NCBI GenBank assembly: GCA_963796275.1
Contig: CAWCKY010000001.1
Span: forward strand, 128,001 to 192,000
Direction of reading: 5' to 3'
Origin: an uncultured Acidobacteriota bacterium
Lineage (GTDB): Bacteria; Acidobacteriota; Blastocatellia; RBC074
Length of the DNA: 64,000 bases
Positions 13,598-34,000 of this stretch are shown piece after piece. The notes beneath the pieces are model-generated. The model did no database searches, was not told the DNA's origin, and worked only from the letters and a program-made list of their open reading frames with translations. How positions within the stretch are numbered: position 1 is the stretch's first letter; every line of letters begins with the position of its first letter. The position numbers and the translations under genes are program-made.

Positions 13598-14207
13598 CCG
13601 AGAACAAGTTGATAGCTAGAGGCTTTTCAATGAATTCAACGAAGATTGAAGAGATCGAGGACAAACATATCAACCATTTGCACTTGTCCGAACATATTGA
13701 GAGAAATTGACGGGGAGAAGATAACTTGTCAGGGACGGTTCGCATTGATTACTCGGAAGGATCCTAGGCTCCTGCCAATCCCACAATAACTCCAAAAAGA
13801 CACCACCCCACGATCCGCCATTCGATGGCCGGGCCGAGTTGTGTTTACCCGGGATCGACTCTACCACCATGATCCATTGCGCCAGCGGATCGACAGGGTT
13901 TTCGACTTCTCATTTCATCCATAATACCTAATGCTGGGCATGAAGCTTAAACAATGCTTTCTCAGAGGCTTGAGAGCTGGATAGAGGAGTAATGGAGCAT
14001 AATTTCGTTAAAAATAGAGAGCTAATAGAGGACATCTCAAGAATCTCGAAGATAGTATTCAGCCGTGAATAAGCCGAGGCAGCAGTCAAGTCTCGTCTTC
14101 GGTCTCATTCAATACACCAACGGATGAACAGAAGCTTATTCAATGGAAAAAGCTACTGGTTGCCGATGCAATTACAACTCTGGATTTGATTTTATAAGGA
14201 GAGTCTC

Positions 14208-15170
14208 ATGACAAAGGATATGAGGATCGATGCGATCGTGACATCGACTGGTAATGTAATTGATATGTTTGTGGAGGGCGCGCCTATTCTCAGATCGGAT
14301 CAGGACGAATCACTGGTCAGTGACTCGGTCGATTTGGGCTACGAAGATATGGAGGAAGTGATCGCCCCATATATCTCTTTCAACCATAACGAAGTTATCA
14401 TCAGTGACGAGGTTGATTTGGAAGCTGAGGAGTTGGAGGACGTGATCGCTCCCCTTATCAGTTTCAACCATAACGAAACTATCGTCTGCGACGAGGTTGA
14501 GTTGGACGCTGAGGAGCTGGAGGACGTGATCGCCCCGTATGTCTCTTTGAACCATAACGAAACTATGGTCTGCGACGAGATTGAATTGGACACTGAGGAG
14601 CTGGAGGACGTGATCGCTCCATTTATCACTCTCAACCATAACGAATCTATGGTCTGCGACGAGGTTGAGTTGGACGCCGAGGAGCTGGAGGACGTGATCG
14701 CTCCCGTTATCTCTTTCAACCATAACGAAACTATGGTCTGCGATGAGGTTGAATTGGACACTGAGGAGCTGGAGGATGTGATCGCCCCGTATATCTCTGT
14801 CAACCATAACGAGGTTATCGTCAGTGACGAGATTGAATTGGACGCTGAGGAACTGGAGGACGTGATCGCTCCGCATATCTCCGTCAACCACAACGAAGTT
14901 ATGGTCTCCGACGAGATTGAATTGGACGCAGAGGAGCTGGAGAACGTGATCGCTCCATTTATCACTTTCAACCATAATGAAACGATTGTCTGCGATGAGG
15001 TTGAATTGGACGCAGAGGAGCTGGAGGACGTAATCGCTCCCTATATCACTTACAACCATAACGAATCTATGGTCTGCGACGAGGTTGATTTGAACGCCGA
15101 GGAGCTTGAAGATCTGATCGCGCCCATGACCATGGATTACCAGGGGTCGCCAGTGATCACTTATAGCTAG
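14208..15170 (+). CDS. Acidic tandem-cassette protein; putative multi-core peptide precursor
   Basis: AAGGAG RBS. 320 aa with ten D-x-x-x-L-x-x-E-(E/D)-(L/M)-E-x-(V/L)-I-A-P units at 28-aa period; nine are followed by xxxx-NHNE-xxxx. First gene of an operon with TPR and M50 protease genes. Confidence 0.75.
   Translation: MTKDMRIDAIVTSTGNVIDMFVEGAPILRSDQDESLVSDSVDLGYEDMEEVIAPYISFNHNEVIISDEVDLEAEELEDVIAPLISFNHNETIVCDEVELDAEELEDVIAPYVSLNHNETMVCDEIELDTEELEDVIAPFITLNHNESMVCDEVELDAEELEDVIAPVISFNHNETMVCDEVELDTEELEDVIAPYISVNHNEVIVSDEIELDAEELEDVIAPHISVNHNEVMVSDEIELDAEELENVIAPFITFNHNETIVCDEVELDAEELEDVIAPYITYNHNESMVCDEVDLNAEELEDLIAPMTMDYQGSPVITYS
14322..15125 (+). repeat. 84-bp coding tandem repeat (9 full units plus a 10th leader-like part)
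   Basis: Recurrent gacgaggttgarttggacgcngaggagctggaggacgtgatcgcncc...aaccataacgaa every 84 nt, in frame, with synonymous variation between units. Confidence 0.95.
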
Positions 15171-15182
15171 CCCGGGCCTAAC

Positions 15183-16082
15183 ATGCAGAATTTCAGAAGG
15201 CATGTGGCGACAGATCCACCGAAGGCACAGGAATCTCTGCAAGTGCAGATTCGCGCTATTTGCGGCACGGCCGAAGCTTGGCGCATCGAGGGGCGTTACA
15301 GCGAGGCCGAGCCGCTCTACCGATGGGCGCTGGAGCTGGCGGAACAGAATTTTGGCCATGATCACCCGGAAGTCGCGATTATCAGCAACAATCTGGCCGT
15401 GCTCTGTAAATACACAGGTAAGTTCGATGAAGCTGAACGACTCTATCGGCGCGCATTCGCTTTGATGGAGCAAACGATGGGAACGGATGCCCGCCATATC
15501 GCCACGCTCTATCACAACCTCGGCGGATTGGAACACGCGCGTGGCCGATTCGCCGCCGGTGAACTTGCGGCACGCCGCTCTGTCGAGATTCGTGAACGCG
15601 CCCTCGGTCCTGATCATCTCTATGTAGCTGCCGATATCGCCGCACTGGCGGCCATTCTGGATGGGCAGGGGAAATATGCCGAATCAGAGCCGCTCTATCG
15701 AAGAGCATTGGCGATCTTTGAGCGAGAGTTAGGTCCTGAACATTACGAGATCGCCGTCAACCTCAACAATCTGGCCGCGCTTAAACAATCGCAGGGCTAC
15801 CAGCAGGAAGCTGAACGACTCTATCGCCGGGCTCTTCTGATAAAAGAAAAATTGCTGGGATCGAATCATCCGGACGTGGCGATGACGCTAAACAACCTGG
15901 CCGTCCTCTGCAAAACGCAATGCCGGTATGTCGAAGCGGAAGCCATGTACCGGCGCGCCCTGGCTATCTTCACGCAATCGTTAGGACCTGAGCATCCGAA
16001 GGTCGTGACCTGCCGCCGAAACTATGCGGGCCTGATGCTAAAGATGAGGCGGCAGAATTCTCAACTGAGTAGCGATCAATGA
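15183..16082 (+). CDS. Stand-alone tetratricopeptide-repeat protein (six 42-aa kinesin-light-chain-type TPRs)
   Basis: Repeats of type GxYxEAExLYxRALxIxExxLGxxHPxVAxxLNNLA. Starts 12 nt after the precursor stop and overlaps the next gene via ATGA. Confidence 0.9.
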   Translation: MQNFRRHVATDPPKAQESLQVQIRAICGTAEAWRIEGRYSEAEPLYRWALELAEQNFGHDHPEVAIISNNLAVLCKYTGKFDEAERLYRRAFALMEQTMGTDARHIATLYHNLGGLEHARGRFAAGELAARRSVEIRERALGPDHLYVAADIAALAAILDGQGKYAESEPLYRRALAIFERELGPEHYEIAVNLNNLAALKQSQGYQQEAERLYRRALLIKEKLLGSNHPDVAMTLNNLAVLCKTQCRYVEAEAMYRRALAIFTQSLGPEHPKVVTCRRNYAGLMLKMRRQNSQLSSDQ

Positions 16083-18688
16083 AGACCGATTACTGCGCCT
16101 ACCCGCCACTGATCGCCCCTGACGTGGAAATCTCGGAACAACACGAAGGCGACTGCACGGCTTTCATCGTCGGCTCCGCCTCGACAAGCCGTTATCTGTT
16201 GATACGTGACGCGGAATATCGAGTGCTGCAGATGCTCGGCGAAGGGCGCGCCCCCGCGGAAATCTGCCGGCAATTCAAACAGAGGTACGGCGGGACGCTT
16301 GCGCTCGCAACCCTCACGAAGTTTCTCTCCCGGCTCGATGATTACGGCATTCTCGCAGGCGATCGCGCAGCTGGACGTCAATCGCCGGGACAGCAGTTGA
16401 GCACGCAGTTTTACCTGCGCTTCAGCCTGTTCAACCCCGATCCGCTCTTCACGCGCGTGGTCGGTGTGTTGCGCTGGGTGTGGACGGCCCAGTTCTTTGC
16501 CGGCTCCCTCCTTCTGATGCTGATCGCGGCGGCATTGGCATTGATCAACCGAACCGAAGTCGCACAATACGGCAGTTACATTCTGCGTGAACATTATCTC
16601 GCGGTTATCTTAGCCGGATTACTGGTGGGTGTAACTCACGAATTCGCGCATGGGCTGACGTGCAAGGCTTTCGGCGGGCGGGCGACCGAAGTCGGCGGCT
16701 TGTTGATCTATTACTGCCTGCCGGCGCTCTACTGCAATGTTTCAGGTCTCCACCTGATCCCGCATCGCAGCCGGAGACTGTGGGTGATCGCCGCGGGGGT
16801 CTATTGGCAGCTTCTGGTCGGAACATTCGCGCTGCTGGCATGGTTGATGCTCGCACCATTTACGATCTTCTCGGACCTCGCCTTCATCTTCTTATGCGGC
16901 AGCGTGCTGAATGTCGCTTTCAACGGAAACCCGCTGATCAAGCTCGACGGATATTACTTCCTGAGTCAGTGGCTGCGAATGCCGAATCTCATGGATCGCG
17001 GACGCGCCTGGTGGCGCGATCTTTTGCGATCCATTTTTTTCGGTGCTCCGAGTGAGGATGAAAAACGTTACAGCCGGCGCGAGCAGGCGATTCTTGCGTC
17101 ATTCAGTTCGCTCTCGTTTACTTACACGCTGGGTCTGCGAGTGTTCATAGTGATCTTCGTCGGTTCATATCTGACTGACTGGTTTCACCTGCCGGGATTG
17201 TTGCTCACTGCCGTCCTGGCTCTCACCTATATGCGGCGGCCGTTCGAGGAGTTGATGACCGCGGCGGTCTCCGCTTTGCGGCCACTCGGTGCAAATTTCA
17301 ATCAGTTTTGGAAAGCAAAAATGTCAACTCAGAAGCAAACTTCAACGATCGATCCGGGACAGAACGAAAGCCCTGCGCGCCGGCTTCGGCGCAGGCTCAT
17401 ACCGCTGGCGATCGCCTCGTTACTTACCTTGATCTTCTGTCTCCCCTGGAACGCCTCGGTCGGTGCTAACGGCGTCCTCGTCGCCATTCCGGGACAGGAG
17501 ACGATTATTCGCGCCCCGGAGAGCGCGATACTATCCGAACTGCGCGTGCGCCCGGGCGACCTGACGGAGGAGGGCGCGGTCCTGGGCCGGATGAGCAACG
17601 TCGAACTCGATGAGCAGCTGGCGCACGTACAGATAGAGCTCGATCGGGCGATTACCGAATATGAGCGTTATATCGGGGAATTGCGGCTCCGCGAGGAATC
17701 GATTACTCGGGCCGAAGTGAACCTGCGGCAGCGCCAGAGAGATTACGAAGAGAGTGATTCCGAGAGGCGACAGATCGAAGAGAGGCGGCGCGCCGAGCCG
17801 GACCGGGCGAAGTATCTGGTTGCATATGGCGGTTCGTTCTCGTTACCTGCCGCCGATCATCAAATGGAAAACAGTGTCTCGACTTATCCGGCAGCCATCG
17901 CAGTCTTGCACTCGGATGCGGAGATGCGCCACGCGAGATTGGCAGAGGCCAGTCTCCAGCGCGACCGGACACGGATGCTTTATGCACAGGGCATCGCGCC
18001 GCGGAGCGAGCTGGATGGAGCTGAAACACGAGCTTCGACTCTGGCCATCGAACTCACAGCGGCGCGCCAGCGGCTCGATTCCGCTCTGGTCGAACACCGG
18101 CATCGCCATCTCGGTCTGACGACCGAATTGCTGCGGGCGCGCTCGGACGTTACGTCTGAGCGATTACAGACCGGGAATCTCCATAACCTGGTCCGAGCAG
18201 CGAGCGATCTCATCTCCACTCTCACCGCTCGCCGTGACCTGTTACGGGGCAGGCTGGCGCAGCTTTCACTCGTAACGCCGCGTGCCGGCGCTGTATTCGG
18301 TGAAGAGTTACCGCGTATGGTCGGACAATATTTCCCCAAAGGCTCGGAAATCTGCCGCGTGGCCGAAACGCGGCAACTGCTGGCGCGCATTCAGGTATCC
18401 GAGCGTGAGATCGGAGACATTCGCCCGGGCAATCCGGTCCGGCTCAAGGTGCGGGCGCACCCCGACCGCGTCTTTCGTGGCAGCGTCGCCAAGATCGGCA
18501 GCGAAAGCGAACTCGATCCGGGCGGGCAGGTAATCTATCGGGTGGAATTGATCATTGAAAATACGGACGATCTTTTGCGATCCGGAATGACCGCATTCGC
18601 TCGCGTCGATTTTGACCGCCGGATGATCGGGGGCATCCTGATCTACAAACTGAAGCAGGCACTGCGACCTGAATTATGGATGTTGTAA
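16079..18688 (+). CDS. Winged-helix/RRE-like + M50 (site-2) zinc metalloprotease + HlyD-type membrane-fusion protein (YydH-like)
   Basis: N-terminal YLLIRDAEYRVLQMLGEGRAPAEICRQF..LTKFLSRLDDYGIL; HEFAH zinc motif; NGNPLIKLDGYY (NPxxxxDG); several TM helices; IRAPESAILSELRVRPGD lipoyl half, coiled coil and VSEREIGDIRPGNPV beta-barrel. Confidence 0.85.
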   Translation: MKTDYCAYPPLIAPDVEISEQHEGDCTAFIVGSASTSRYLLIRDAEYRVLQMLGEGRAPAEICRQFKQRYGGTLALATLTKFLSRLDDYGILAGDRAAGRQSPGQQLSTQFYLRFSLFNPDPLFTRVVGVLRWVWTAQFFAGSLLLMLIAAALALINRTEVAQYGSYILREHYLAVILAGLLVGVTHEFAHGLTCKAFGGRATEVGGLLIYYCLPALYCNVSGLHLIPHRSRRLWVIAAGVYWQLLVGTFALLAWLMLAPFTIFSDLAFIFLCGSVLNVAFNGNPLIKLDGYYFLSQWLRMPNLMDRGRAWWRDLLRSIFFGAPSEDEKRYSRREQAILASFSSLSFTYTLGLRVFIVIFVGSYLTDWFHLPGLLLTAVLALTYMRRPFEELMTAAVSALRPLGANFNQFWKAKMSTQKQTSTIDPGQNESPARRLRRRLIPLAIASLLTLIFCLPWNASVGANGVLVAIPGQETIIRAPESAILSELRVRPGDLTEEGAVLGRMSNVELDEQLAHVQIELDRAITEYERYIGELRLREESITRAEVNLRQRQRDYEESDSERRQIEERRRAEPDRAKYLVAYGGSFSLPAADHQMENSVSTYPAAIAVLHSDAEMRHARLAEASLQRDRTRMLYAQGIAPRSELDGAETRASTLAIELTAARQRLDSALVEHRHRHLGLTTELLRARSDVTSERLQTGNLHNLVRAASDLISTLTARRDLLRGRLAQLSLVTPRAGAVFGEELPRMVGQYFPKGSEICRVAETRQLLARIQVSEREIGDIRPGNPVRLKVRAHPDRVFRGSVAKIGSESELDPGGQVIYRVELIIENTDDLLRSGMTAFARVDFDRRMIGGILIYKLKQALRPELWML

Positions 18689-18699
18689 AGGTCGAAATA

Positions 18700-19095
18700 T
18701 CATTGTTTTACGAGAGGCGAGATGTAGAGGCGTTCCTGTATGACCTCATACACCGCAGGCACTAGCTCTCGGCTAGCGGCCAGCTTAAAGACATAGCCCT
18801 TTGCTCCCGCGGAAATTCCTTCTTCTAACATACTCCGATCGTTATGCATGGTGAGTAATATGATCTTCGCCTCGAAGTCTTCCTCGACTATTCTCATGGT
18901 CGCTTCGATGCCGCTCATTTCGGGCATATTGATGTCGGCTATGATTACGTCAGGTTTGAAATTCTTGACCGCTTGGAGCAAATCTCGCCCGTTCTGGACT
19001 ATTGCTACAACTTCGAACTCTGGCTGCAGTACATCCTTGATGAGGCTAAGCATCTCCGCGTGGTCATCGGCCACTACTATTCTGATTTTACTCAT
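18700..19095 (-). CDS. Single-domain response regulator (NarL-type receiver, no HTH)
   Basis: IVVADDH, PDVIIADINMPEMSGIEA, ILLTMH, GAKGYVFK; ends right after the receiver domain. Confidence 0.85.
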   Translation of the reverse strand: MSKIRIVVADDHAEMLSLIKDVLQPEFEVVAIVQNGRDLLQAVKNFKPDVIIADINMPEMSGIEATMRIVEEDFEAKIILLTMHNDRSMLEEGISAGAKGYVFKLAASRELVPAVYEVIQERLYISPLVKQ

Positions 19096-19191
19096 TGGGA
19101 CCATCCGAAGTAGGTGGAATCCTTGCATCTGCCATTTGACATAAAATCTTGCAGGCAATGCACTATGCCATCCTCGACCGGGTATCCGATG

Positions 19192-20079: not shown

Positions 20080-23000
20080 ATGACCCACTCAATTTTGGAG
20101 GCGAATCCGGGAGATTTGAGGAATTTGCAAATCAAGATAGAGAGTCGTTTCGGCGTTCTACCGAACTTCTTCCGGCTGGCTCCTAAAAGCCCGGAGGTCA
20201 CGGCGAACCTCTGGGAGTTTGCGCAGTTCGCTTACCTGGATAATCCACTTCCATCGCTATTCAAGGAACGGTTATTCGTCTATCTCTCTCGCTTTTGCAA
20301 AGCGCGCTATAGCGTCGCGCGGCACGTCGGCTTCCTAGTCGGGCTGGGGCATCCCTCAGGCGACAACCAGTGTCCGATCCAGACCATCGAAGAAATCATG
20401 CGACTTCTCCGGCGTCCGTTCCCACGGGCCGAGCGCCTGAAACCGCACGTTTCTGGTCTCGCCGCCCGTAAGGCACCTCTGGCTAAATTGCCGAAGCCTG
20501 ATTCCGCCCTTGAAGAGACTATCTTTGCGTGCGCCGCTCATGTCTTCTTGCAGACACCAGACGCGCCCCGATGCCTCGACGCGATCAATCGCGCCTTTGG
20601 CGAATCGCGGTTCGAATACCTGATGACGTTTCTCGCATTCGTCCATACCGCCCATTACTGGACCTCGGTTCATACGGAATTGGAAGTTGAAGAGGACATC
20701 CAGCGGCTTTTGGCGACCTACGAAGCACTAGCCGAATGTCTGCTGAACGACCCGGAGTCCGGGACTTGTGAAATCAGTCAGAAGCTGCTCGACGAGTTGG
20801 CGTCACTGCGGGAGACCAGGGAGCGCCACAATGAATTATTGCAAGCGCATCAGACAGTACGCGAGAGCGAGGTGCAGGGCCGACGAACCAATGCGGAACT
20901 CGCCGGGCGTGTGGCTGAACTTCAAGAGCTCACTGTTGAACTACAGAATGCGCGCCGAGCCGCGCTCAATCTGATGGAAGACGCGATCCAGGCGAAAGCT
21001 GCGTTGGCGGAGTCCGAGGAGCGTTATCGCTCGCTGGTCTCTGTCATCACTGACGTCTCCTGGACGACCGATGTGGCAGGCCGGTTCGCCACGCCGCAGC
21101 CCGCGTGGACGGCTTACACAGGTCAGATCTGGAATGAATTGCGGGACTTCGGCTGGGTCGACGCCCTGCATCCCGAAGACCGAGAGAACGTCGGGGTCAC
21201 ATGGCTGCACGCCGTCAAATCACGATCCCTTTACAAATCACATGGACGGCTCTGGCACGCGCCGAGCCAGCAGTACCGCTACTTCGAGGCGCGGGCGACG
21301 CCGTTGTTCGACCCCGACGGCGGCGTGCGAGAATGGGTCGGCTCCTGCACGGATATTCACGACCGCAAAATGGCCGAAACGGCGTTGAGTGAAAGCGAGG
21401 AACGGTATCGGCGCCTGCTGGACAAACTGCCGGTTGGGGCCTATACCTGCGATGCCGATGGATCGATAACATATTTCAATCAGCGTGCGGTCGAAGTGTG
21501 GGGGCGCACCCCGAAATTGAATGACCCCGTGGAACGTTTCTGCGGCTCATATAGGCTTTATTCGCCTGACGGAGCGCTGATTCCCCACGATCGATGTTGG
21601 ATGGCGGTCGCGATTAAGGAGAAAAAGGTATACGAGGGACATGAGATCGTGATCGAGCGTCCGGACGGCTCCCGGCTGACAGTCCTGGTCCATGTCAACC
21701 CGTTTTACAATGAGGCTGGGAAATTGCTCGGAGCGATTAACATATTGGTGGACATCACCGACCGCAAGCGAGCCGAAGCAGCGATGGCTCAAATGGCGGC
21801 CATCGTCGAATCGTCAGATGACGCCATCATTAGCAAGGATTTGAATGGAATCATTGCGAGCTGGAACAAAGGTGCGGAAAAGCTGTTTGGTTACACGGCG
21901 GCGGAAGTCATCGGCAAACCGGTGACAATTCTTATTCCTCAGGATCGGGTGGACGAAGAGCCGCGAATTCTCGAACGGCTCACGCGCGGCGAGCAGGTTG
22001 ATCAGTACGAAACCGTGCGACGGCGCAAAGATGATAGCGAGGTTGACATTTCGCTGACGATCTCACCCATTAGAGACAAGACAGGAAAAGTTATCGCCGC
22101 GTCGAAAATTGCGCGCGACATCACCGAACGCAAGCGCAGCGAGATCGAAAGAGAAGAACTGTTGCTCAAGGAATCGGCGGCCCGCGCCGAGGCGGAAGCC
22201 GCAAATCGCAGTAAAGATGAATTCCTGGCCGTCGTCTCGCATGAGTTACGCTCGCCCCTGGGCGCGATCCTCGGTTACAACAGTATGCTGCGCGAGAAAC
22301 CGTCCGACAAGACGCAACTGAATTCATACTGCGACATCATTGAGCGCAACGCCAAAACGCAACTGCAATTGATCGAAGACCTGCTCGATACTGCCCGCAT
22401 CGTCAGCGGCAAGCTGCGGCTGGAATTGCGCCCCCTGGACATCACCCCCCTGCTCGCCGACGCGCTCGATGTGGTGCGCCCGGCGATAGAGGTCAAAGGT
22501 GTCAAATTGCGGATTCGGGAGGGCGGAGTAGAGAATGAAAATGGCGCGACGCGGGAAGAACCCGCAATCTTGTTGGGTGATGCCGCCCGGTTACAGCAGA
22601 TCATCTGGAACCTGCTCTCGAATGCGATTAAGTTCACGCCCGCCGGCGGGTTTGTCGAATTGCGTGCCGAACGCGGCGAAGGACATATCCGCATCATCGT
22701 CAGCGACACCGGCAAAGGCATACAGCCGGAAGTCCTGCCTCATGTATTCGACCGCTTCCGACAGGCCGATTCATCAAGCTCGCGGCGGTACGACGGCCTT
22801 GGTCTGGGTCTCGCGCTGGTGAAGGACTTGGTCGAACTGCATGGCGGTAAGGTCGAGGCGGCGAGCGAAGGCGCAGGACGTGGCTCGAGGTTCACCGTCA
22901 CACTGCCGTTGGCGGCACCAAGCGAATTGGGCGCTGTGGAGCCTAAGGCCCTGGCATTGGCCGTTGGCGCAAATGGCGAGGCGCAGATCCGAGGCGGGAT

Positions 23001-23457
23001 CCCATTGCCTGATGGGGTAACGATCGCGGGCTTGCGCGTGCTGATGGTAGATGATCAGGAAGAGGCGCGCGTCATGGTCGCCGATTTTCTGAGCCGGTAC
23101 GGCGCCGTCGTGACGACTGCATCGTCCGGCGCTGAAGCATTGTCGGTTCTCTCGAATATGACGGATGACGCGCGACCGGACGTCCTTGTGTGCGACATCG
23201 CCATGCCAATGGAAGACGGCTACACGGCGCTGCGCCGGTTGCGGGCGCTCGAAGATGCTCGCGGCGTCGCGGCGTCACAGCATATTCCGGCGATTGCGCT
23301 GACTGCGTTGGCAGGGAAGGAAGAGCGGTTGCGCGTGCTGAGCGCGGGCTTCCAATGCCACATCGCCAAGCCGGTTGATCCGGTCGATTTGATAGTAAGA
23401 ATCGCGAACATCGCGGGCCTATGGCGGCGGAAAAGAAATATTAGCCGCGGCAGTTGA
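20080..23457 (+). CDS. Hybrid sensor histidine kinase: AhpD/CMD-like domain + 3 PAS/PAC + HisKA + HATPase + REC
   Basis: RFGVLPNFF..NPLPSLFKERLFVYLSRFC N-terminus; three PAC ends (DIHDRK, DITDRK, DITERK); FLAVVSHELRSPL H-box; NLLSNAIKFT; GLGLGL; receiver DVLVCDIAMP. Confidence 0.9.
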   Translation: MTHSILEANPGDLRNLQIKIESRFGVLPNFFRLAPKSPEVTANLWEFAQFAYLDNPLPSLFKERLFVYLSRFCKARYSVARHVGFLVGLGHPSGDNQCPIQTIEEIMRLLRRPFPRAERLKPHVSGLAARKAPLAKLPKPDSALEETIFACAAHVFLQTPDAPRCLDAINRAFGESRFEYLMTFLAFVHTAHYWTSVHTELEVEEDIQRLLATYEALAECLLNDPESGTCEISQKLLDELASLRETRERHNELLQAHQTVRESEVQGRRTNAELAGRVAELQELTVELQNARRAALNLMEDAIQAKAALAESEERYRSLVSVITDVSWTTDVAGRFATPQPAWTAYTGQIWNELRDFGWVDALHPEDRENVGVTWLHAVKSRSLYKSHGRLWHAPSQQYRYFEARATPLFDPDGGVREWVGSCTDIHDRKMAETALSESEERYRRLLDKLPVGAYTCDADGSITYFNQRAVEVWGRTPKLNDPVERFCGSYRLYSPDGALIPHDRCWMAVAIKEKKVYEGHEIVIERPDGSRLTVLVHVNPFYNEAGKLLGAINILVDITDRKRAEAAMAQMAAIVESSDDAIISKDLNGIIASWNKGAEKLFGYTAAEVIGKPVTILIPQDRVDEEPRILERLTRGEQVDQYETVRRRKDDSEVDISLTISPIRDKTGKVIAASKIARDITERKRSEIEREELLLKESAARAEAEAANRSKDEFLAVVSHELRSPLGAILGYNSMLREKPSDKTQLNSYCDIIERNAKTQLQLIEDLLDTARIVSGKLRLELRPLDITPLLADALDVVRPAIEVKGVKLRIREGGVENENGATREEPAILLGDAARLQQIIWNLLSNAIKFTPAGGFVELRAERGEGHIRIIVSDTGKGIQPEVLPHVFDRFRQADSSSSRRYDGLGLGLALVKDLVELHGGKVEAASEGAGRGSRFTVTLPLAAPSELGAVEPKALALAVGANGEAQIRGGIPLPDGVTIAGLRVLMVDDQEEARVMVADFLSRYGAVVTTASSGAEALSVLSNMTDDARPDVLVCDIAMPMEDGYTALRRLRALEDARGVAASQHIPAIALTALAGKEERLRVLSAGFQCHIAKPVDPVDLIVRIANIAGLWRRKRNISRGS

Positions 23458-24335: not shown

Positions 24336-27300
24336 ATGTCCCGCAAGAAATCAACTCCAGTCACACCTCCCGCGGCAGCAACTAAACGCGCTAGTCAGGC
24401 AAAGGCGGATTCGCCTATTGAAGAAAAGAGCGATCAGGTGAACGCAGATCCCAGGAAATCAGCTCGCCGGCGCAAACCTGACTCCATCGTCGTGGAAAAG
24501 CGTGACGAGGAACGACAGGCTGACTACAAATCTTTCCCGGTAGTCGGGATTGGCGCTTCCGCCGGCGGCCTCGAAGCCTTCAGACAGTTACTCAAGCATC
24601 TTCCCGTCGATACTGGAATGGCTTTCGTGCTGGTGCAACACCTCGACCCGACACATGAAAGTATTCTGACAGAACTGCTTTCCCGATGTACCCGGATGGC
24701 TGTGAGCGAAGTCAGGGACGGCATGGGTGTCGAGCCCGATCATCTTTATATCATTCCGCCCAATACCAACATGGCAATTGCCGAGGGCGTGTTGCGCCTT
24801 CTGCCCCGCGAAGAAGCGCGTTTGCGACATCGTCCGATCGATTATTTCCTGCGCACGCTAGCCGAAGACCAAGGCCATCGAGCCATCGGAGTAATTTTAT
24901 CCGGGACGGCTTCCGATGGCACCCCAGGCTTGGAAGCGATCAAAGCCGAGGGCGGGATCACCTTCGCGCAGGATCCCAAATCGGCCGGGTACGACGGCAT
25001 GCCGCATAGCGCCATCGCAGCCGGTCACGTGGATTTCATTCTTACTCCCGAAGGCATTGCCACAGAGCTGGCGCGGATCAGCCGTCACCCTTATGTAGTT
25101 CCTACGGCCACCATTACATCCGTTGGAGAAGAAATTCCACCCACAGGCCAGAATGGCTTCCGAAAAATACTGACCTTGCTACGGAGGACTAAAGGAGTTG
25201 ACTTCACCGATTACAAAGCCAACACCCTGCACCGGCGCATCACGCGACGTATGGTGTTAAATAAGCTGGATAGCATGGAGGATTATGCCCGTTTCCTGCG
25301 CGAGAACGTGGCGGAAGTCGAAGCGCTCTATCACGACATCCTGATCAACGTGACCTCTTTTTTTCGCAACCCGGAAACCTTCGAAGTCTTGAAAGAAAGA
25401 ATCTTTCCGCACATCGTCAAGTATCAAGTTCCGAATGAGCCGGTCAGAATCTGGTCGCTGGGGTGCTCGACCGGCGAGGAAGCCTATTCCATCGCCATGT
25501 CATTCGTAGAATTTGCGGGAGATCAGACGGAGCACATTCCTATCCAGATTTTCGCCACCGACCTCAACGACAGAAGTATCGATAAAGCGCGCGCGGGTCT
25601 CTACTCGAAGGAGATCGCGGAGCATGTCTCGCCGGAGCGCTTGCGGCGTTTCTTCATGGAAGCGGAAGGCGGCTACCGGATCAGCAAGCCGATCCGTGAC
25701 ATGGTGGTATTCGCGTGGCAGAACGTTCTCGCCGACCCGCCTTTCTCGCACTTGGATTTAATCAGTTGCCGCAATCTGCTGATCTACCTTGAGCCGGTAT
25801 TGCAAAAGCGGGTGCTGCCGACACTTCACTACGCCCTCAAGCCGACTGGCATTCTCTGGCTCGGCTCCTCGGAGACAGTGGGTTCGGCCTCCGATTTGTT
25901 TACTCCAGAGGACAAGAAGCACCGTTTCTACGTCAAGAAATTAACATCGTCCCGCATGCGCTTTCGCCCCGCGCCAGGCGATATCAGGCCTGACAGGGCC
26001 GACTTTGGCCAGAAAAAGCTAAACCCTATGACCGAGCCTGCTCTGGGTGGGCGCGACGCGGAGAAGGAGGCAGACCGGATTCTACTGGCTCGCTACTCTC
26101 CTCCAAGCGTCCTCATCAACGCCGATATGGATATCCTACAATTTCGCGGTTCGACCGGACCCTATCTCGAGGCTCCGGCCGGCAAGCCGACACTCAACCT
26201 TCTGAAGATGACCCGCGAGGGGTTAATGCTGCCATTGCGTGCGGCAATCCAAAAGGCAAAGAAGGATGATACGATCGTCAAAAAGGAGGGCGTACGGATC
26301 AAGTATGGCGCCGAATTCCATCAGATCAATCTGGAAGTGATTCCGACCAAGGGCCTCCCGGCGAATGAACGCTGCTTTCTCGTGTTGTTCGAGCAGACCC
26401 CGACCCCGAATCTGGGACAAGAGGCTAAGCCACCCGAAGCGAAAGCCGGCCGGGCAAACCGCGAGACAGATCGTCAGTCGGCGCGCTTACAGGAGGAGCT
26501 GGCTGCCACACGCGAATATATACAATCGCTCGACGAGCAGCATGAGGCCGCCAATGAAGAGCTCCAATCCGCCAACGAGGAAATCCAGTCGAGCAACGAG
26601 GAATTGCAGAGCATCAATGAAGAACTGGAGACCGCCAAAGAAGAGCTTGAATCCAGTAACGAAGAGCTGGCGACAGTCAACGACGAGCTGCGCAACCGGA
26701 ATCTGGAATTGACTGCGCTCAATGACGACCTGAACAATCTGCTCGGCAGCGTCAACATACCCATTCTGATGCTGGGCAGTGACCTGCGCATTCGGCGCTT
26801 CACGCCGCAGGCGGAAAAAGTTCTGACCCTGATCTCGACCGATTTGGGGCGGTCCATTGGGGACATCAAGCTCAAGATCAATATCCCTGATTTGGATGCG
26901 TTGATTGTCGAGGCGATCTCGACCGTGAGCGCACAGGAGCGAGAGATTCAGGACACGCAGGGACATTGGTATGCGATGCGCGTGCGGCCCTACAAGACCC
27001 TGAACAATAAGATTGACGGCGCGGTTATCGTGCTGATAGACATCGACGCACTCAAACGAGACGAGGTGGAGATCAAAGAATCGCGCGATTACGCCGAAGC
27101 GATCATCGGCACTACGCCCATCCCGCTTGTGGTTATGAACGCCGACCTGCGCATTCGCACGGCCAATGACGCCTTCTATAACACTTTCAAAGTCTCTCCG
27201 AGAGAATCGGAAAGCCGCCTGATTTATGATTTAGGCAATGGCCAATGGAATATCCCCAGGCTGCGTGAACTGCTCAATGATATTCTTCCCGGAAATACTT

Positions 27301-28019
27301 TCTTCAACGACTTCGAAGTCACGCACGACTTTGAAGTAATCGGCCGCCGCACTATGCTGCTCAACGCTCGCGTGCTAAACGGTCCTAACGGGGAGCCCCT
27401 TAGGATTCTCCTGGGTATTCAAGATATCACCGAACTGTTACGCTCCCAATCGGCAGTGCGGCGCTCGGAGATTCGCTACCGGCGACTCTTCGAAGCAGCC
27501 CAGGACGGCGTGTTACTTATCGACCCGAAAACGCGAACAATTCTCGACGCCAATCCCTTCATGACCGAGTTGCTGGGTTACACGCTCGACGAGTTGCCGG
27601 GCAAGGAACTGTTTGAGATCGGACTCTTGAAAGATGAAACGGCTAGCCGCCTCGCATTCCGGGAATTGCAGGAAGGGGGCTTCCTTCGCTACGACGATTT
27701 GACGATGCAAACCAAAACGGGCCAGCGCCGCGATGTCGAGATGATCTGCAATCTTTACGATGAGGTCGGAGAAAAAATCATCCAGTGCAACATCCGCGAC
27801 ATCACCGAACGGAAGCGGGCCGAGGAAGCGTTGCGGGAGAACCACGCCCAACTTCAGTCGCATGCGGAGGAGTTGGCTCGTTTCAATAGCGCCGCGGTCG
27901 GGCGCGAGTTGCGCATGATTGAATTGAAGAAAGAGATCAACGAACTTTACCGACAACTAGGGCATGCCGCGCGATACCCACTCGAATTCGAGGAGGAGGA
28001 AAAGGACACCCATGGCTAG
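24336..28019 (+). CDS. CheB methylesterase-CheR methyltransferase-coiled coil-PAS fusion without kinase domain
   Basis: GIGASAGGLEA, VQHLDP, LSGTASDG (CheB); INVTSFFRN, WSLGCSTGEEAYS, DLISCRNLLIY (CheR); NEELQS repeats; PAS domains; ends RELRMIELKKEINEL. Confidence 0.9.
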   Translation: MSRKKSTPVTPPAAATKRASQAKADSPIEEKSDQVNADPRKSARRRKPDSIVVEKRDEERQADYKSFPVVGIGASAGGLEAFRQLLKHLPVDTGMAFVLVQHLDPTHESILTELLSRCTRMAVSEVRDGMGVEPDHLYIIPPNTNMAIAEGVLRLLPREEARLRHRPIDYFLRTLAEDQGHRAIGVILSGTASDGTPGLEAIKAEGGITFAQDPKSAGYDGMPHSAIAAGHVDFILTPEGIATELARISRHPYVVPTATITSVGEEIPPTGQNGFRKILTLLRRTKGVDFTDYKANTLHRRITRRMVLNKLDSMEDYARFLRENVAEVEALYHDILINVTSFFRNPETFEVLKERIFPHIVKYQVPNEPVRIWSLGCSTGEEAYSIAMSFVEFAGDQTEHIPIQIFATDLNDRSIDKARAGLYSKEIAEHVSPERLRRFFMEAEGGYRISKPIRDMVVFAWQNVLADPPFSHLDLISCRNLLIYLEPVLQKRVLPTLHYALKPTGILWLGSSETVGSASDLFTPEDKKHRFYVKKLTSSRMRFRPAPGDIRPDRADFGQKKLNPMTEPALGGRDAEKEADRILLARYSPPSVLINADMDILQFRGSTGPYLEAPAGKPTLNLLKMTREGLMLPLRAAIQKAKKDDTIVKKEGVRIKYGAEFHQINLEVIPTKGLPANERCFLVLFEQTPTPNLGQEAKPPEAKAGRANRETDRQSARLQEELAATREYIQSLDEQHEAANEELQSANEEIQSSNEELQSINEELETAKEELESSNEELATVNDELRNRNLELTALNDDLNNLLGSVNIPILMLGSDLRIRRFTPQAEKVLTLISTDLGRSIGDIKLKINIPDLDALIVEAISTVSAQEREIQDTQGHWYAMRVRPYKTLNNKIDGAVIVLIDIDALKRDEVEIKESRDYAEAIIGTTPIPLVVMNADLRIRTANDAFYNTFKVSPRESESRLIYDLGNGQWNIPRLRELLNDILPGNTFFNDFEVTHDFEVIGRRTMLLNARVLNGPNGEPLRILLGIQDITELLRSQSAVRRSEIRYRRLFEAAQDGVLLIDPKTRTILDANPFMTELLGYTLDELPGKELFEIGLLKDETASRLAFRELQEGGFLRYDDLTMQTKTGQRRDVEMICNLYDEVGEKIIQCNIRDITERKRAEEALRENHAQLQSHAEELARFNSAAVGRELRMIELKKEINELYRQLGHAARYPLEFEEEEKDTHG

Positions 28020-31052: not shown

Positions 31053-34000
31053 TTAAGCCCTGTCTTGCCCACCGAGAATCACGCGTACGTAGTGTAGTTG
31101 CGCGTCGTCAGATAAGTCGATTTCGGATGATTGCTGAATCTTTCCGTCGATTTCCAATTGGGCAACACCGCGACAGATGCCGTGCGGATTTTCGACCTTG
31201 ATGTGATAGCGCGTGGCGCCTCGGCGCCCATGCTTATAGAGAATCTCGAATTCACGCCAGCCGCGCGGAATGGATGGGTCAATTCGCAAGCGGTCGCCGT
31301 TGAGTTGAAAGCCGAGAATTGATTCGAGTCCGGCACGATACATCCAGGCTGCCGAACCTGTGTACCAGGTCCATCCGCCGCGTCCGGTGTGTGGCGGCAT
31401 GGCGTAGATGTCGCCTGCCACTACATACGGCTCGACGCGATATTTATGCAGCCCGGCGCGCGTCGAGGAATGGTTGATCGGATTAAGCAGTGCGAAAAGT
31501 TCACCAGCACGGTCGCCGTCTCCGAGCATGGCGTAAGCAATCAACGTCCACAACGCCGCGTGCGTGTACTGCCCGCCATTTTCTCGCACGCCCGGCACAT
31601 ACCCTTTGATATAGCCAGGGTTCAGCGTTCCACGGTCGAAAGGCGGCGAAAAGAGGATCACGATCCCGTCGCCGCGACGTATCAGATATTCTTCGACGGC
31701 CGCCATCGCACGGCGTCACGCGCTGCTTGTCCGCCGCGCCGGAGATCACGCCCCAGGACTGCGCGATCGAATCGATGCGACATTCATCGTTCTGCGCCGA
31801 GCCGAGCGGCGTGCCATCATCGAAATAAGCGCGACGGTACCAGTCCCCATCCCAGGCCTGCTCCTCGAGCGCGGTCTTCAAGTTCATCGATGTGCGCCCG
31901 ATACTGCGCTGCGCGCTCCCGATCCTCGCGTCCATCGCAGAACGGCGACAAAGTCTTCGAGCGTGGCGTAGAGAAACCAACCGAGCCAGACGCTCTCACC
32001 TTTGCCGCCGTTGCCGACGCGATTCATGCCGTCGTTCCAATCCCCTGCCCCCATCAACGGCAGGCCGTGTTCACCAGTCGCCAAACTGCGATCGATCGCG
32101 CGCAGGCAGTGTTCATAAAGAGTGGCCTGCTCAGATGAAACCTGCGGATGCAAGTACGAGTCGTCCTCGCTCTTCGGCCAAAAGCGGGGCTTCGAGAAAC
32201 GGAATCACTTCATCAAAGATTGCGATCGTCTCCGGTCACGCGGATGTAGAAGCTCGTGACATAAGGCAGCCATAACAAATCGTCGGAGATACGCGTGCGG
32301 ACGCCGCGATCAGTCGGCGGATGCCACCAGTGTTGGACGTCGCCTTCTTTGAATTGATGCGCGGCGGCAAGCAGAATCTGCGCGCGCGTCAACTCCGGAC
32401 TGGCATAGACGAGCGCCATCACGTCTTGCAGTTGGTCGCGAAAACCGTACGCGCCGCCCGATTGATAGAACGCCGAGCGCGCCCAGATGCGGCACGCGAG
32501 CGTTTGATATAACAACCAGCGATTGAGCATCAGGTCCATCGCCGCATCGGGCGTGCGGACTTCGACGGTCGACAACGTCTCGTCCCAGTAACTCGCGACG
32601 CTCTCGATGGCTTCGTTGACCGCTGACGTTTTGAGATAGCGCACGACGAGTTCGCGGGCATTTTCCGCGCTCTCGCTCTCGCCCAGCAAAATGATGATTT
32701 CGCGCGATTCGTCAGGCGCGAGTTCAACGACGCTCTGTAAAGCCGCGCACGGGTCGAGTCCCGCGCCAAACCGATCATCGAGCCGCGCGCGACGCAATGC
32801 CGCCGGGTGCGCCGGACGCGCCGTTACGTCCCAGGAAAGATTTGCGGTCGCAGGTCGCGCTGGCGGGAGCCGGATTCATCGCGGTGAAAACCACGCGATT
32901 CGCAAACTCGTTGTTGTAGGCATTGCGCGCAAATACTGCGCCAGTCTCCTTGTCGCGTTCGGTGACGATGAACGGCGCGGACTTTTCGCGAGTGATGCCA
33001 AGCACCAACTCGTTGTATGTCGTGACTGACACTCGCCGGCGCCGGCCGGTGCGATTATGCAGGCGCAATGTCGAAATCTTCACCGGAGCGTCCAGCGGCA
33101 CTAAGACCATCAACTCCTGTGCGATGCCATGACTGGTATGTTCAAAAATCGTGTAGCCCTGTCCGTGCCGGATGACATAAGGCTGCGCCTCGCGCACCGG
33201 CAGCGGCGTCGGCGTCCAGACAGTTCCGGTATCTTCGTCGCGCAGATATATCGTTTCGCCGGGCGGATCGCTCACGGCATCATTTGACCAGGGTGTTAAT
33301 CGATTCTCACGGCTGTTGACAGACCAGGTGTAACCCGCACCCGTCTCAGTTACTAGAAACCCGAAATCTCTGCCCATTAGCGATCACGTTTGTCCACGGC
33401 GCGGGCGTCCACTGCCCTTCATTCAAGACCGTGACATACTCGCGCCCTTCCCGTGCAAAGCCGCCAAGACCATTGAAGAATTGCAAATCGGAAACGCTGA
33501 TTGCCTGCTCCTCCGGATAAGTTTGCGCAGGAGAGCGCGGCATGAACGGCGCGGGCGGATCGTTATCTTCAACCGGACGCCGGGCGAGTTGTTCTTCGAG
33601 CGTCCCGCGTTCGGGGACCAGGACGACACGCGCGACGGTATGCAACAGAATCTTGTCCTCATCCGGCATGATGTCTGTGCGGCGCACATAAACACCGCCC
33701 GGTTCGTCCTGTAACGTTTGCAGGCCCGTCGAACGAATCAGCGTCTGTATCTCCTCTTGTAACAACTGCAAATAACTGGGCGGATGGTCATTGAGAATGA
33801 CCAGGTCAATGCGCAGACCCTTGAGACGAAGGTATTCATGACCGCGTAGTACCTGCCGGACCATGTCCAAATCATCAGTCACGCTGATTCGCACCAGCAC
33901 GATCGGAAGGTCGCCGCTGATGCCATATTTCCACAAATTGGATTGCGTCTTTTGATTCAGAGTCAGGACCTTTGAGCGTGGGCGCAATGAATTATCGGAA

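Follow-up and report, generated by a model that had tools for sequence, protein, structure and literature searches.

What does a soil acidobacterium make with a small, acidic protein composed of nine near-identical cassettes? Acidobacteriota are described as among the most abundant soil bacteria, with few experimentally confirmed secreted metabolites. The protein in question is encoded within a stretch of 64,000 nucleotides (nt), here called the window, from an uncultured member of the class Blastocatellia (assembly GCA_963796275.1, contig CAWCKY010000001.1, positions 128,001 to 192,000). We consider it fairly likely that this open reading frame (ORF) is a multi-core peptide precursor in which a leader is iterated and which is cut after each Ala-Pro (AP) and exported. 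An adjoining membrane protease-exporter probably cuts the precursor into a set of different short peptides. Coordinates, all relative to the window, are collected in Table 1.

The tripeptide IAP occurs 10 times in the ORF translation, spaced exactly 28 residues apart. Tandem Repeats Finder placed the array at 14350-15121 (period 84, 9.2 copies, 84% matches, score 980) and also reported a super-period of 252 nt. In each of the nine units, codons 1 to 13 encode a leader-like segment, [ED]-L-x-x-E-E-L-E-D-V-I-A-P, followed by a variable core (codons 14 to 17), N-H-N-E (codons 18 to 21), a tail (codons 22 to 25) and D-E-[VI] (codons 26 to 28). A preliminary description of this DNA had reported nine distinct tetrapeptides between IAP and NHNE, all of the form x-[IV]-[ST]-hydrophobic, together with two tail classes and repeats free of Lys and Arg, and the translation bore out all three. 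The tails of units 1 to 9 read VIIS, TIVC, TMVC, SMVC, TMVC, VIVS, VMVS, TIVC and SMVC, so that units 1, 6 and 7 carry V-x-x-S and the other six [TS]-x-V-C, and the single Lys and two Arg of the whole protein lie at residues 3, 6 and 29, with none beyond. No signal peptide was apparent in the translation. The N-terminus (about residues 13 to 41) reads like a decayed unit, with AP, then ILRS, then DQDE, and a similar N-terminus is retained in the close relative P0007.

The forward frame is backed by homologues and by synonymous change (dS) far exceeding nonsynonymous change (dN) in the flanks. Two ORFs on the opposite strand (14310-15617, 435 residues, and 14339-14971, 210 residues) were set aside as by-products of a stop-free repeat, the synonymous pattern fitting the forward frame. 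Matches of the repeat protein to Pfam Ovate (PF04844, 5.9e-11) and TIGR01568 (6.8e-7) were rejected as spurious, since no single stretch passes and these plant-specific families are matched by the acidic repeat. Scans of Pfam and NCBIfam gave no curated family covering the precursor, single and double units found nothing significant in NCBIfam at E ≤ 10 (the best being Amm_Lyn_leader, E 0.25), and the Protein Atlas held no usable match.

Nine distinct tetrapeptides are unremarkable alone, because the residue states seen permit 5 x 2 x 2 x 4 = 80 combinations; the notable feature is the contrast of variable cores with invariant flanks. This contrast was measured by Nei-Gojobori counts over the 36 pairs of the nine units. 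The dN/dS ratio was 0.16 in the 13-codon acidic leader part (0.08 without unit 1) and 1.1 in the four tail codons, and dN was 0 in the NHNE codons. For the four core codons the ratio was about 3.9 (dN 0.43, dS 0.11), a value above 1 that is indicative and not a test, as it stems from four codons, from non-independent pairs of nine paralogous units and from 10 synonymous differences. Codons 14 to 17 held 110 of the 312.5 pairwise nonsynonymous differences (35%; 46% without unit 1) and just 10 of the 188.5 synonymous ones (5%). For nonsynonymous change they ranked first among the 25 adjacent four-codon windows, and random sets of 4 of the 28 codons matched their value in 0.9% of draws. Variation is thus uneven over the unit, and the evenness that would have refuted the preliminary description was not observed.

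By sequence, the precursor is a member of a rare, unnamed family confined almost wholly to Blastocatellia. An exhaustive search of 1.84 billion proteins returned 188 cluster representatives at E ≤ 0.001, 58 of which reached 1e-10, mostly 50 to 160 residues long; a word-indexed search found 6 relatives only. Members share the pattern EE-x-EE-V-I-A-P, a variable stretch of 3 to 13 residues (usually 4) and N-H-N-E-T, in 1 to 11 units. A census by regular expression took in 155 family proteins, 140 of which had at least one unit, giving 263 units in total: 49 proteins had one unit, 69 two, 15 three, 5 four, and one each five and six. IAP was present in 224 of the 263 units, NHNE in 231 and a Thr directly after NHNE in 223, and by these counts NHNE is conserved across the family to the same degree as the leader. 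Cores of four residues made up 201 of the 263, 223 cores were distinct, and the tails beyond the last NHNE were mostly 5 to 8 residues long. Over 29 units from relatives, the entropy was 2.0 to 3.4 bits per core position, 0 to 0.4 bits at E-9, E-6, I-3, A-2, P-1 and NHNE, and 0.6 to 0.8 bits at V-4 and T+1.

Scanning a single genome from each species, with the pattern EExEE[VM]IAP only and hence missing divergent members, gave 29 loci (L021-L049). Nearly all were in metagenome-assembled genomes (MAGs) titled Blastocatellia, Blastocatellales or Acidobacteriota, and a few were titled Heliomicrobium, Heliobacteriaceae, Acidimicrobiia, Actinomycetota or Solibacteraceae. These precursors had up to 11 units; among relatives in general, units were about 22 to more than 30 residues long, and many cores were rich in Gly, Lys or Arg. 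Of the genome relatives, the closest is L021; there ( best precursor segment 60% identical, TPR protein 72%, protease 68%, the latter two described below), the flanks are retained and the cores mostly differ, and in the 75% identical fragment P0007 both covered cores already differ. The comparison of cores in homologues proposed in the preliminary description therefore gave fixed flanks around a stretch that changes in sequence and length. The precursor was present in 8 of 41 related genomes (7 of 24 of the same family and 0 of 16 of other families of the class), and as a single copy in its own genome. One unpublished genome (G004) supplies L002, L017 and L029; it was excluded from alignments A1-A3, no conclusion rests on it, and it counts once in each of the 8 precursor-positive and 15 protease-positive genomes and the 20 TPR-, 18 ECF- and 19 kinase-positive loci given here.

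The conservation of NHNE raises the question of which part of the unit is the product. The NHNE-T-hydrophobic block could itself be the functional product or pharmacophore, with the four preceding residues a tolerated linker under relaxed, not diversifying, selection. A stretch ranging from 3 to 13 residues is linker-like, the block is as invariant as the leader, and the core dN/dS comes from few sites; however, the core is not random, position 1 of the four-residue cores being G, K or R in 151 of 201 and position 2 being I, L or V in 139 of 201. Some precursors keep the core frame constant and vary just one position of it (GGGW-x-P six times in L026), and core dN in the window exceeds dS instead of equalling it. 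We therefore hold the linker explanation to be unlikely and retain that of a variable core.

The genes next to the precursor point to how it might be processed. Downstream lie a gene for a tetratricopeptide repeat (TPR) protein and one for an 869-residue protein. The three are indicated to form one operon, because the precursor has a Shine-Dalgarno site, the TPR gene starts 12 nt after the precursor stop and the 869-residue gene start overlaps the TPR stop by 4 nt. The 869-residue protein appears to be a fusion of a RiPP recognition element (RRE; RiPPs are peptides synthesized by ribosomes and modified post-translationally), a site-2-type intramembrane metalloprotease (S2P) and an HlyD adaptor. 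Its residues 12-392 gave a sub-threshold match to positions 3-372 of the 379 in NF041824 (daptide_HExxH, 4.6e-50) and a weaker one to the YydH/LiaK model NF058609 (1.8e-8; 34.3 bits against a cut-off of 225); Pfam HlyD_3 also matched. The AlphaFold2 (AF2) model of residues 1-400 (predicted local distance difference test [pLDDT] 76.5) showed an RRE-type N-terminal domain followed by a helical membrane domain. The top Foldseek matches of the RRE part were RREs of lasso-peptide systems in complex with their leaders, 5v1u_B (E 6.9e-3, template modelling [TM] score 0.66, 88 columns) and 6jx3_B, followed by ThcOx, TigE and CteB; the best Protein Data Bank (PDB) matches overall had E values of 0.007 to 0.05, with TM scores of 0.64 to 0.68 on RRE targets. 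PDB sequence searches with the protease N-terminus and its profile gave no match. Both catalytic motifs are invariant in the 13 aligned orthologues, HEFAH and N-x-x-P-x-x-x-L-D-G, which we take to be the second site-2-protease signature. The protease family has at least 463 metagenome relatives at E ≤ 1e-20, all with generic names (HlyD adaptor, putative peptide zinc metalloprotease, multidrug efflux pump).

The gene order recurs. Among the 29 loci, 20 have the TPR gene downstream of the precursor and 17 have the protease-HlyD gene there; in at least L023, L029, L031, L032 and L038 the contig ends right after the precursor or inside the TPR gene. Across the 41 related genomes, 7 of the 8 holding the precursor had a close protease orthologue. 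At one locus (L012 3675-5537, + strand, same contig as L043), the TPR and protease genes are separated by an inserted gene for a 621-residue Kelch-repeat protein.

The leader itself resembles that of daptides. In the daptide report (bioRxiv 10.1101/2023.03.08.531785), precursors, MpaA being that of the system, are described with the leader motif ELExMEAP, numbered E-8, L-7, M-4, E-3 and P-1. RRE-dependent processing requires L-7 and M-4, and the leader is taken off by an intramembrane peptidase that depends on the RRE. Because E-8, L-7, V-4, A-2 and P-1 of the units match this numbering, we read each unit as a leader with a core starting right after Pro. Each would then consist of an acidic recognition sequence of 13 to 15 residues ending in V-I-A-P, a short variable core (four residues here) and the invariant N-H-N-E(-T). 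The cytoplasmic RRE of the 869-residue protein would dock on each E-L-x-x-V-I-A-P element, and the site-2-type HExxH domain would cut directly after Pro, in the same way that the daptide leader peptidase cleaves behind ELExMEAP. The fused HlyD adaptor would couple release of each piece to export across the envelope, yielding up to nine different short peptides with the variable tetrapeptide first and the NHNE(T) block in common. What the data show of this scheme is the anatomy, the pattern of conservation across the family, the linked genes, the catalytic motifs in intact form and both folds (RRE and S2P). Its conditional part is docking, cleavage behind Pro, export, where the C-terminal cut falls and what the TPR protein and NHNE do.

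Independent sequence support for the leader reading comes from three distant S2P-HlyD paralogues (32 to 34% identity) in three other acidobacterial genomes, L054 (G033:C8), L055 (G002:C193) and L056 (G017:C321). Each is preceded by a different small ORF with the same type of element, E-L-E...[VI]-[AV]-A-P, before unrelated cores: one a short hydrophobic tail and two Ser/Lys- or Gly/Ser/Lys-rich tails beside a FemAB-family gene (PF02388, 2.2e-36). This arrangement suggests that AP-leader peptides form a wider superfamily in Acidobacteriota.

A three-chain complex prediction (protease residues 1-400, the TPR protein and two precursor units) scored 0.50, and the best of 3 controls scored 0.18. 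In calibration, 58 of 80 solved complexes reached the mark, as did 2 of 110 mismatched pairs, and scores of 0.60 or below included only 7 of the 80 solved complexes but both of the passing mismatches. Runs agreed in at least 64% of contacts, partner pLDDT was at least 44 and no interface was reported. The job differed from those of the calibration in having its own alignments and three chains, and its pass may stem from likeness to solved RRE-leader complexes; as a model, it gives weak support to the mechanism. A control in which the protease was replaced and the TPR protein kept scored 0.18 and is silent on TPR binding, the job not showing which chain the precursor touches.

Several points weigh against a cut and exported multi-core precursor. 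Cutting after AP alone would leave internal cores joined to the next acidic leader, so the scheme requires a second cut near NHNE(T), for which there is no evident enzyme. The inner-membrane transporter and outer-membrane channel that usually partner HlyD are not conserved in the neighborhood, and two close protease orthologues (L051, L059) have no recognizable precursor upstream. On the protein side, the NF041824 score was 170.8 bits, under the curated cut-off of 300, and the Pfam matches to PqqD (E 0.0028) and M50 were also below threshold. No RNA sequencing run containing the locus is listed; the DNA runs containing it are soil metagenomes, with a small share of the sampled words (0.20 at best). 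Processing, export and product are at this point predicted from genes alone, and the core dN/dS carries the limits given above. Lastly, AF2 modelled the repeat protein as all-beta, with long strands in each unit. A folded, beta-rich repeat protein, solenoid- or sheet-like, with the variable positions as its hydrophobic core would accord with these strands and with the hydrophobic core positions 1, 2 and 4 in the window. Yet the model is unreliable (mean pLDDT 52, 0 residues at 90 or above, 119 of 320 below 50), 93 of the 320 residues are acidic with no signal to direct secretion, and the gene is linked to an RRE-protease. Relatives with one or two units, variable unit lengths and Gly/Lys/Arg-rich cores fit such a fold poorly, and we consider it extremely improbable.

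Next, we considered whether the peptides might be modified. A full RiPP pathway would have Thr, Cys, Asn or His altered by enzymes encoded elsewhere, for example through Thr-Cys thioethers in the six [TS]-x-V-C units, leaving the operon to provide only leader peptidase and exporter. The RRE of the protease is a hallmark of RiPP pathways, and the window units do pair Thr/Ser at +1 with Cys at +4, and Val with Ser. This pairing is, however, not general: the two tail classes do not extend to relatives, where position +4 is Ser in 10 of 29 units and rarely Cys, Thr at +1 being mostly paired with Ser at +4, so that a Thr-Cys link cannot hold for the family as a whole. In a comparison aimed at the ancestry of the V-x-x-S units, units 6 and 7 were no closer to each other than to unit 3 across the 60 flanking nt outside the core and tail codons. 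In L044 a unit lies in frame with methyltransferase-like sequence, a point in favor of modification, but no tailoring enzyme, immunity gene or transporter was conserved in an all-against-all comparison of 12 loci (L009-L020) with the window region or in targeted searches of the 29 loci, which found only TPR, protease-HlyD, sigma factor and kinase genes. The window's remaining neighbors (DUF1622, DUF202, an SBF transporter, a response regulator and sensor kinases) are unrelated. On balance, tailoring by remote enzymes seems a distinctly unlikely addition.

The joined unit in L044 is one of several. In L016 / L049 (G021:C115), L044, P0005 and P0006, units continue in frame, with no stop, into a downstream protein; the partners include a 900-residue secreted protein, the methyltransferase-like protein of L044 and proteins with a twin-arginine-like signal. 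Such joins may reflect genuine fusion, loss of a stop codon or an error in gene calling. In other relatives (L003/L009, L014, L038, L039, L045, P0003, P0004), the last unit is replaced by a Pro-rich ending, E-E-T-[LI]-[TA]-P-T-P-S-I-P-I-P-P-P.

The TPR protein has no detectable hydrophobic or transmembrane segment. Its nearest solved relatives are the TPR domains of kinesin light chain (KLC) 1/2 (E 2.2e-42 to 5.2e-34), among whose entry titles are complexes with JIP1 and torsin-1A; a further match, at an E value of 2.5e-13, was to BKLC, a bacterial KLC-like protein. KLC TPR domains bind short acidic linear motifs. The TPR gene accompanies NHNE-type precursors at 20 of 29 loci and is absent from all three distant paralogue loci, small numbers from related genomes, which points to a putative specific association of the TPR protein with NHNE-type precursors. 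NHNE, for which the preliminary description had proposed a follower signal, a modification site or a metal ligand, could be the site of the second cut, a ligand of the TPR protein, or a metal-binding or receptor-binding head.

A TPR partner with such relatives also brings up a precursor that is never cut, the whole disordered polyacidic chain serving as a multivalent ligand of the TPR protein or of RRE copies and regulating, for example, the protease-HlyD machine or a kinase/sigma pathway. Multivalency would account for the iteration, and the low-confidence fold prediction is compatible with disorder; against this, one or two units are all that 118 of the 140 family members contain, the protease has invariant catalytic motifs, and the same leader element stands before unrelated short cores in the paralogues, which fits a substrate better than a regulator. 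We rate an uncut ligand as very unlikely and return to the exported peptides.

With regard to their function, an extracytoplasmic function (ECF) sigma factor gene (PF07638) was upstream in 18 of the 29 loci and a receptor Ser/Thr kinase gene in 19, and both also adjoin the operon in L010, L011, L013, L016 and L017; the pair is absent at the window's own locus. Because of these neighbors and the lack of a conserved adjacent tailoring or immunity gene, we lean toward a secreted signaling or metal-binding peptide over an antibiotic. In the neighboring kinase, a single transmembrane helix separates the kinase domain from a C-terminal TPR region that is presumably periplasmic. A self-inducing peptide-library circuit can be imagined, although we think it rather improbable: the RRE-S2P-HlyD protein would release up to nine peptides of about 9 to 13 residues with a common NHNE(T), the periplasmic TPR region of the kinase would read them, and the kinase would activate the ECF sigma factor and hence the operon. 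The tetrapeptide would then confer strain specificity (pherotypes), with NHNE as a common receptor- or metal-binding head. If true, Acidobacteriota would gain their first described quorum-sensing system based on a ribosomal peptide, and the multi-core precursor, made by repeating the whole leader, would be of a new design.

An element GATGATAG-N16-CCGTTTATC with a hairpin (GAGAGC...GCTCTC) was found in 8 of 40 upstream regions, about 100 to 180 nt before the precursor start, and could be an ECF-type promoter with a 5' untranslated region structure. Its carriers (L023, L024, L027, L029, L031, L032, L033 and L042) all belong to one subclade and the window does not have it. It was set aside as a family-wide ECF promoter, since shared ancestry may explain its presence.

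Table 1. Features of the candidate precursor operon in the window
Feature	Position	Strand	Basis
Shine-Dalgarno-like AAGGAG	14196..14201	+	Direct reading; 6 nt before ATG at 14208
Candidate precursor ORF, 320 aa	14208..15170	+	ORF list and translation; 58 Glu, 35 Asp
Possible decayed unit 0 (AP, ILRS, DQDE, SLVSD)	14244..14330	+	Interpretation of translation
Nine units, each exactly 84 nt / 28 aa	14331..15086	+	Tandem Repeats Finder and translation
Core 1, YISF	14370..14381	+	Translation
Core 2, LISF	14454..14465	+	Translation
Core 3, YVSL	14538..14549	+	Translation
Core 4, FITL	14622..14633	+	Translation
Core 5, VISF	14706..14717	+	Translation
Core 6, YISV	14790..14801	+	Translation
Core 7, HISV	14874..14885	+	Translation
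Core 8, FITF	14958..14969	+	Translation
Core 9, YITY	15042..15053	+	Translation
Degenerate tenth unit, end of protein	15087..15167	+	Translation; leader part and IAP kept, NHNE absent
Predicted cytoplasmic TPR protein, 299 aa	15183..16082	+	Pfam TPR_12 1.2e-64, TPR_10 1.6e-51
Predicted RRE, site-2-type intramembrane metalloprotease and HlyD adaptor fusion, 869 aa	16079..18688	+	NCBIfam, Pfam
RRE (PqqD-like) domain, about residues 11-92	16109..16354	+	AF2 model: three strands, three helices (residues 16-88)
Site-2-protease-like membrane domain, about residues 115-400	16421..17278	+	Foldseek SpoIVFB (8vjl_A), M. jannaschii S2P (3b4r_A); hydrophobic segments
HEFAH zinc-binding motif, residues 187-191	16637..16651	+	Invariant in 13/13 aligned orthologues
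N-x-x-P-x-x-x-L-D-G, residues 282-291	16922..16951	+	N282, P285, L289, D290, G291 invariant 13/13
Transmembrane anchor (residues 438-461) and predicted periplasmic HlyD-type adaptor	17390..18685	+	TIGR01843 type_I_hlyD 438-849; HlyD_D23 728-839; hydrophobic segment

Farther downstream, the window encodes a lone response regulator (18700-19158, - strand), a 1125-residue PAS hybrid histidine kinase (20080-23457, + strand) and a 1227-residue CheB-CheR-PAS fusion (24336-28019, + strand), none of which showed a connection with the peptide system in related loci. A 1868-residue protein (33346-38952, - strand) with GH94 supersandwich and glucoamylase-like domains is probably, from its domains, a cyclic beta-glucan-type synthase or phosphorylase and is unrelated to the peptide system.

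The locus defines an unnamed, recurrent three-gene system comprising a precursor, a TPR protein and an RRE-S2P-HlyD fusion. On the reading preferred here, it would extend the daptide-type pair of leader and peptidase to another phylum and to a new architecture, with a complete leader before every core, a natural scaffold for encoding peptide libraries. It would also allow a direct test of an RRE-guided intramembrane protease acting on a multivalent substrate, and the E-L-E...A-P element before unrelated cores could become a handle for mining further peptide families.

No description of the precursor family was found in the literature searched; the supplementary RRE-peptidase datasets of the daptide papers, which lay outside that search, could mention acidobacterial homologues. 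The preliminary description had likened the repeats to the multi-core precursors of cyanobactins and dikaritins. Its general logic, constant recognition sequences around a variable core, stands, given the flanks of the relatives and the linkage to an RRE-protease, but neither of the two named types is the closest. Cyanobactin precursors of the PatE type have one N-terminal leader and short flanks and are cut and macrocyclized by the subtilisin-like PatA/PatG. They too hold several variable cores, each between constant recognition sequences; here, however, Pfam revealed no PatA/PatG-type protease in the operon or among the window neighbors examined, and a leader-type RRE motif is repeated with every core. 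Precursors of the dikaritin (ustiloxin) and yeast alpha-factor types pass through the eukaryotic secretory pathway and are cut there at the dibasic sites of Kex2, the dikaritins being fungal and accompanied by a UstYa-type oxidase. The likeness lies in tandem short-peptide repeats with constant spacers that give many peptides per gene, whereas the present repeats lack the Lys and Arg of a Kex2 site, no UstYa-type gene was among the neighbors examined, and the relatives are bacterial, mostly Blastocatellia MAGs.

Other systems share single components. In the YydF/YydH epipeptide system, a membrane HExxH metalloprotease likewise matures a small peptide, in keeping with the weak NF058609 match, but that system has a single core and a radical-SAM epimerase that is absent here. 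Graspetides and microviridins differ in that no ATP-grasp domain was found among the neighbors examined. The RRNPP systems of Firmicutes or their phages combine a TPR receptor bearing an effector domain with a Sec-exported propeptide; the protein described here is TPR only, its precursor has no signal peptide and the phylum is Acidobacteriota. The KLC TPR domains and BKLC are clear sequence relatives of the 299-residue protein, and binding of the precursor by it is putative.

The closest parallel is with daptides, whose RRE-fused intramembrane leader peptidase is MpaP. Both systems have an RRE fused to a site-2-type HExxH intramembrane protease, here with an NF041824 match below cut-off, and an acidic leader that closes with A-P and carries Glu at -8, Leu at -7 and, at -4, a hydrophobic residue (V here, M there), so that the flank ELE-x-VIAP matches ELExMEAP; position -3 is Ile here and Glu there. 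The system departs from daptides in two of their defining features, the C-terminal Thr and the tailoring enzymes. The invariant Thr is C-terminal there and internal here, the precursor ending in a degenerate unit. The oxidative decarboxylase, aminotransferase, methyltransferase and RRE-containing DUF protein were not among the window or conserved neighbors, no family search of the whole genome having been made. In addition, the leader is iterated up to 11 times in one polypeptide, compared with several one-core genes in daptides, the protease is fused to an HlyD adaptor and preceded by a TPR protein, and the hosts are Acidobacteriota instead of Actinomycetota or Bacillota. By analogy, we suggest that the system would combine a leader and peptidase acting in the daptide manner with a precursor of the multi-core kind.

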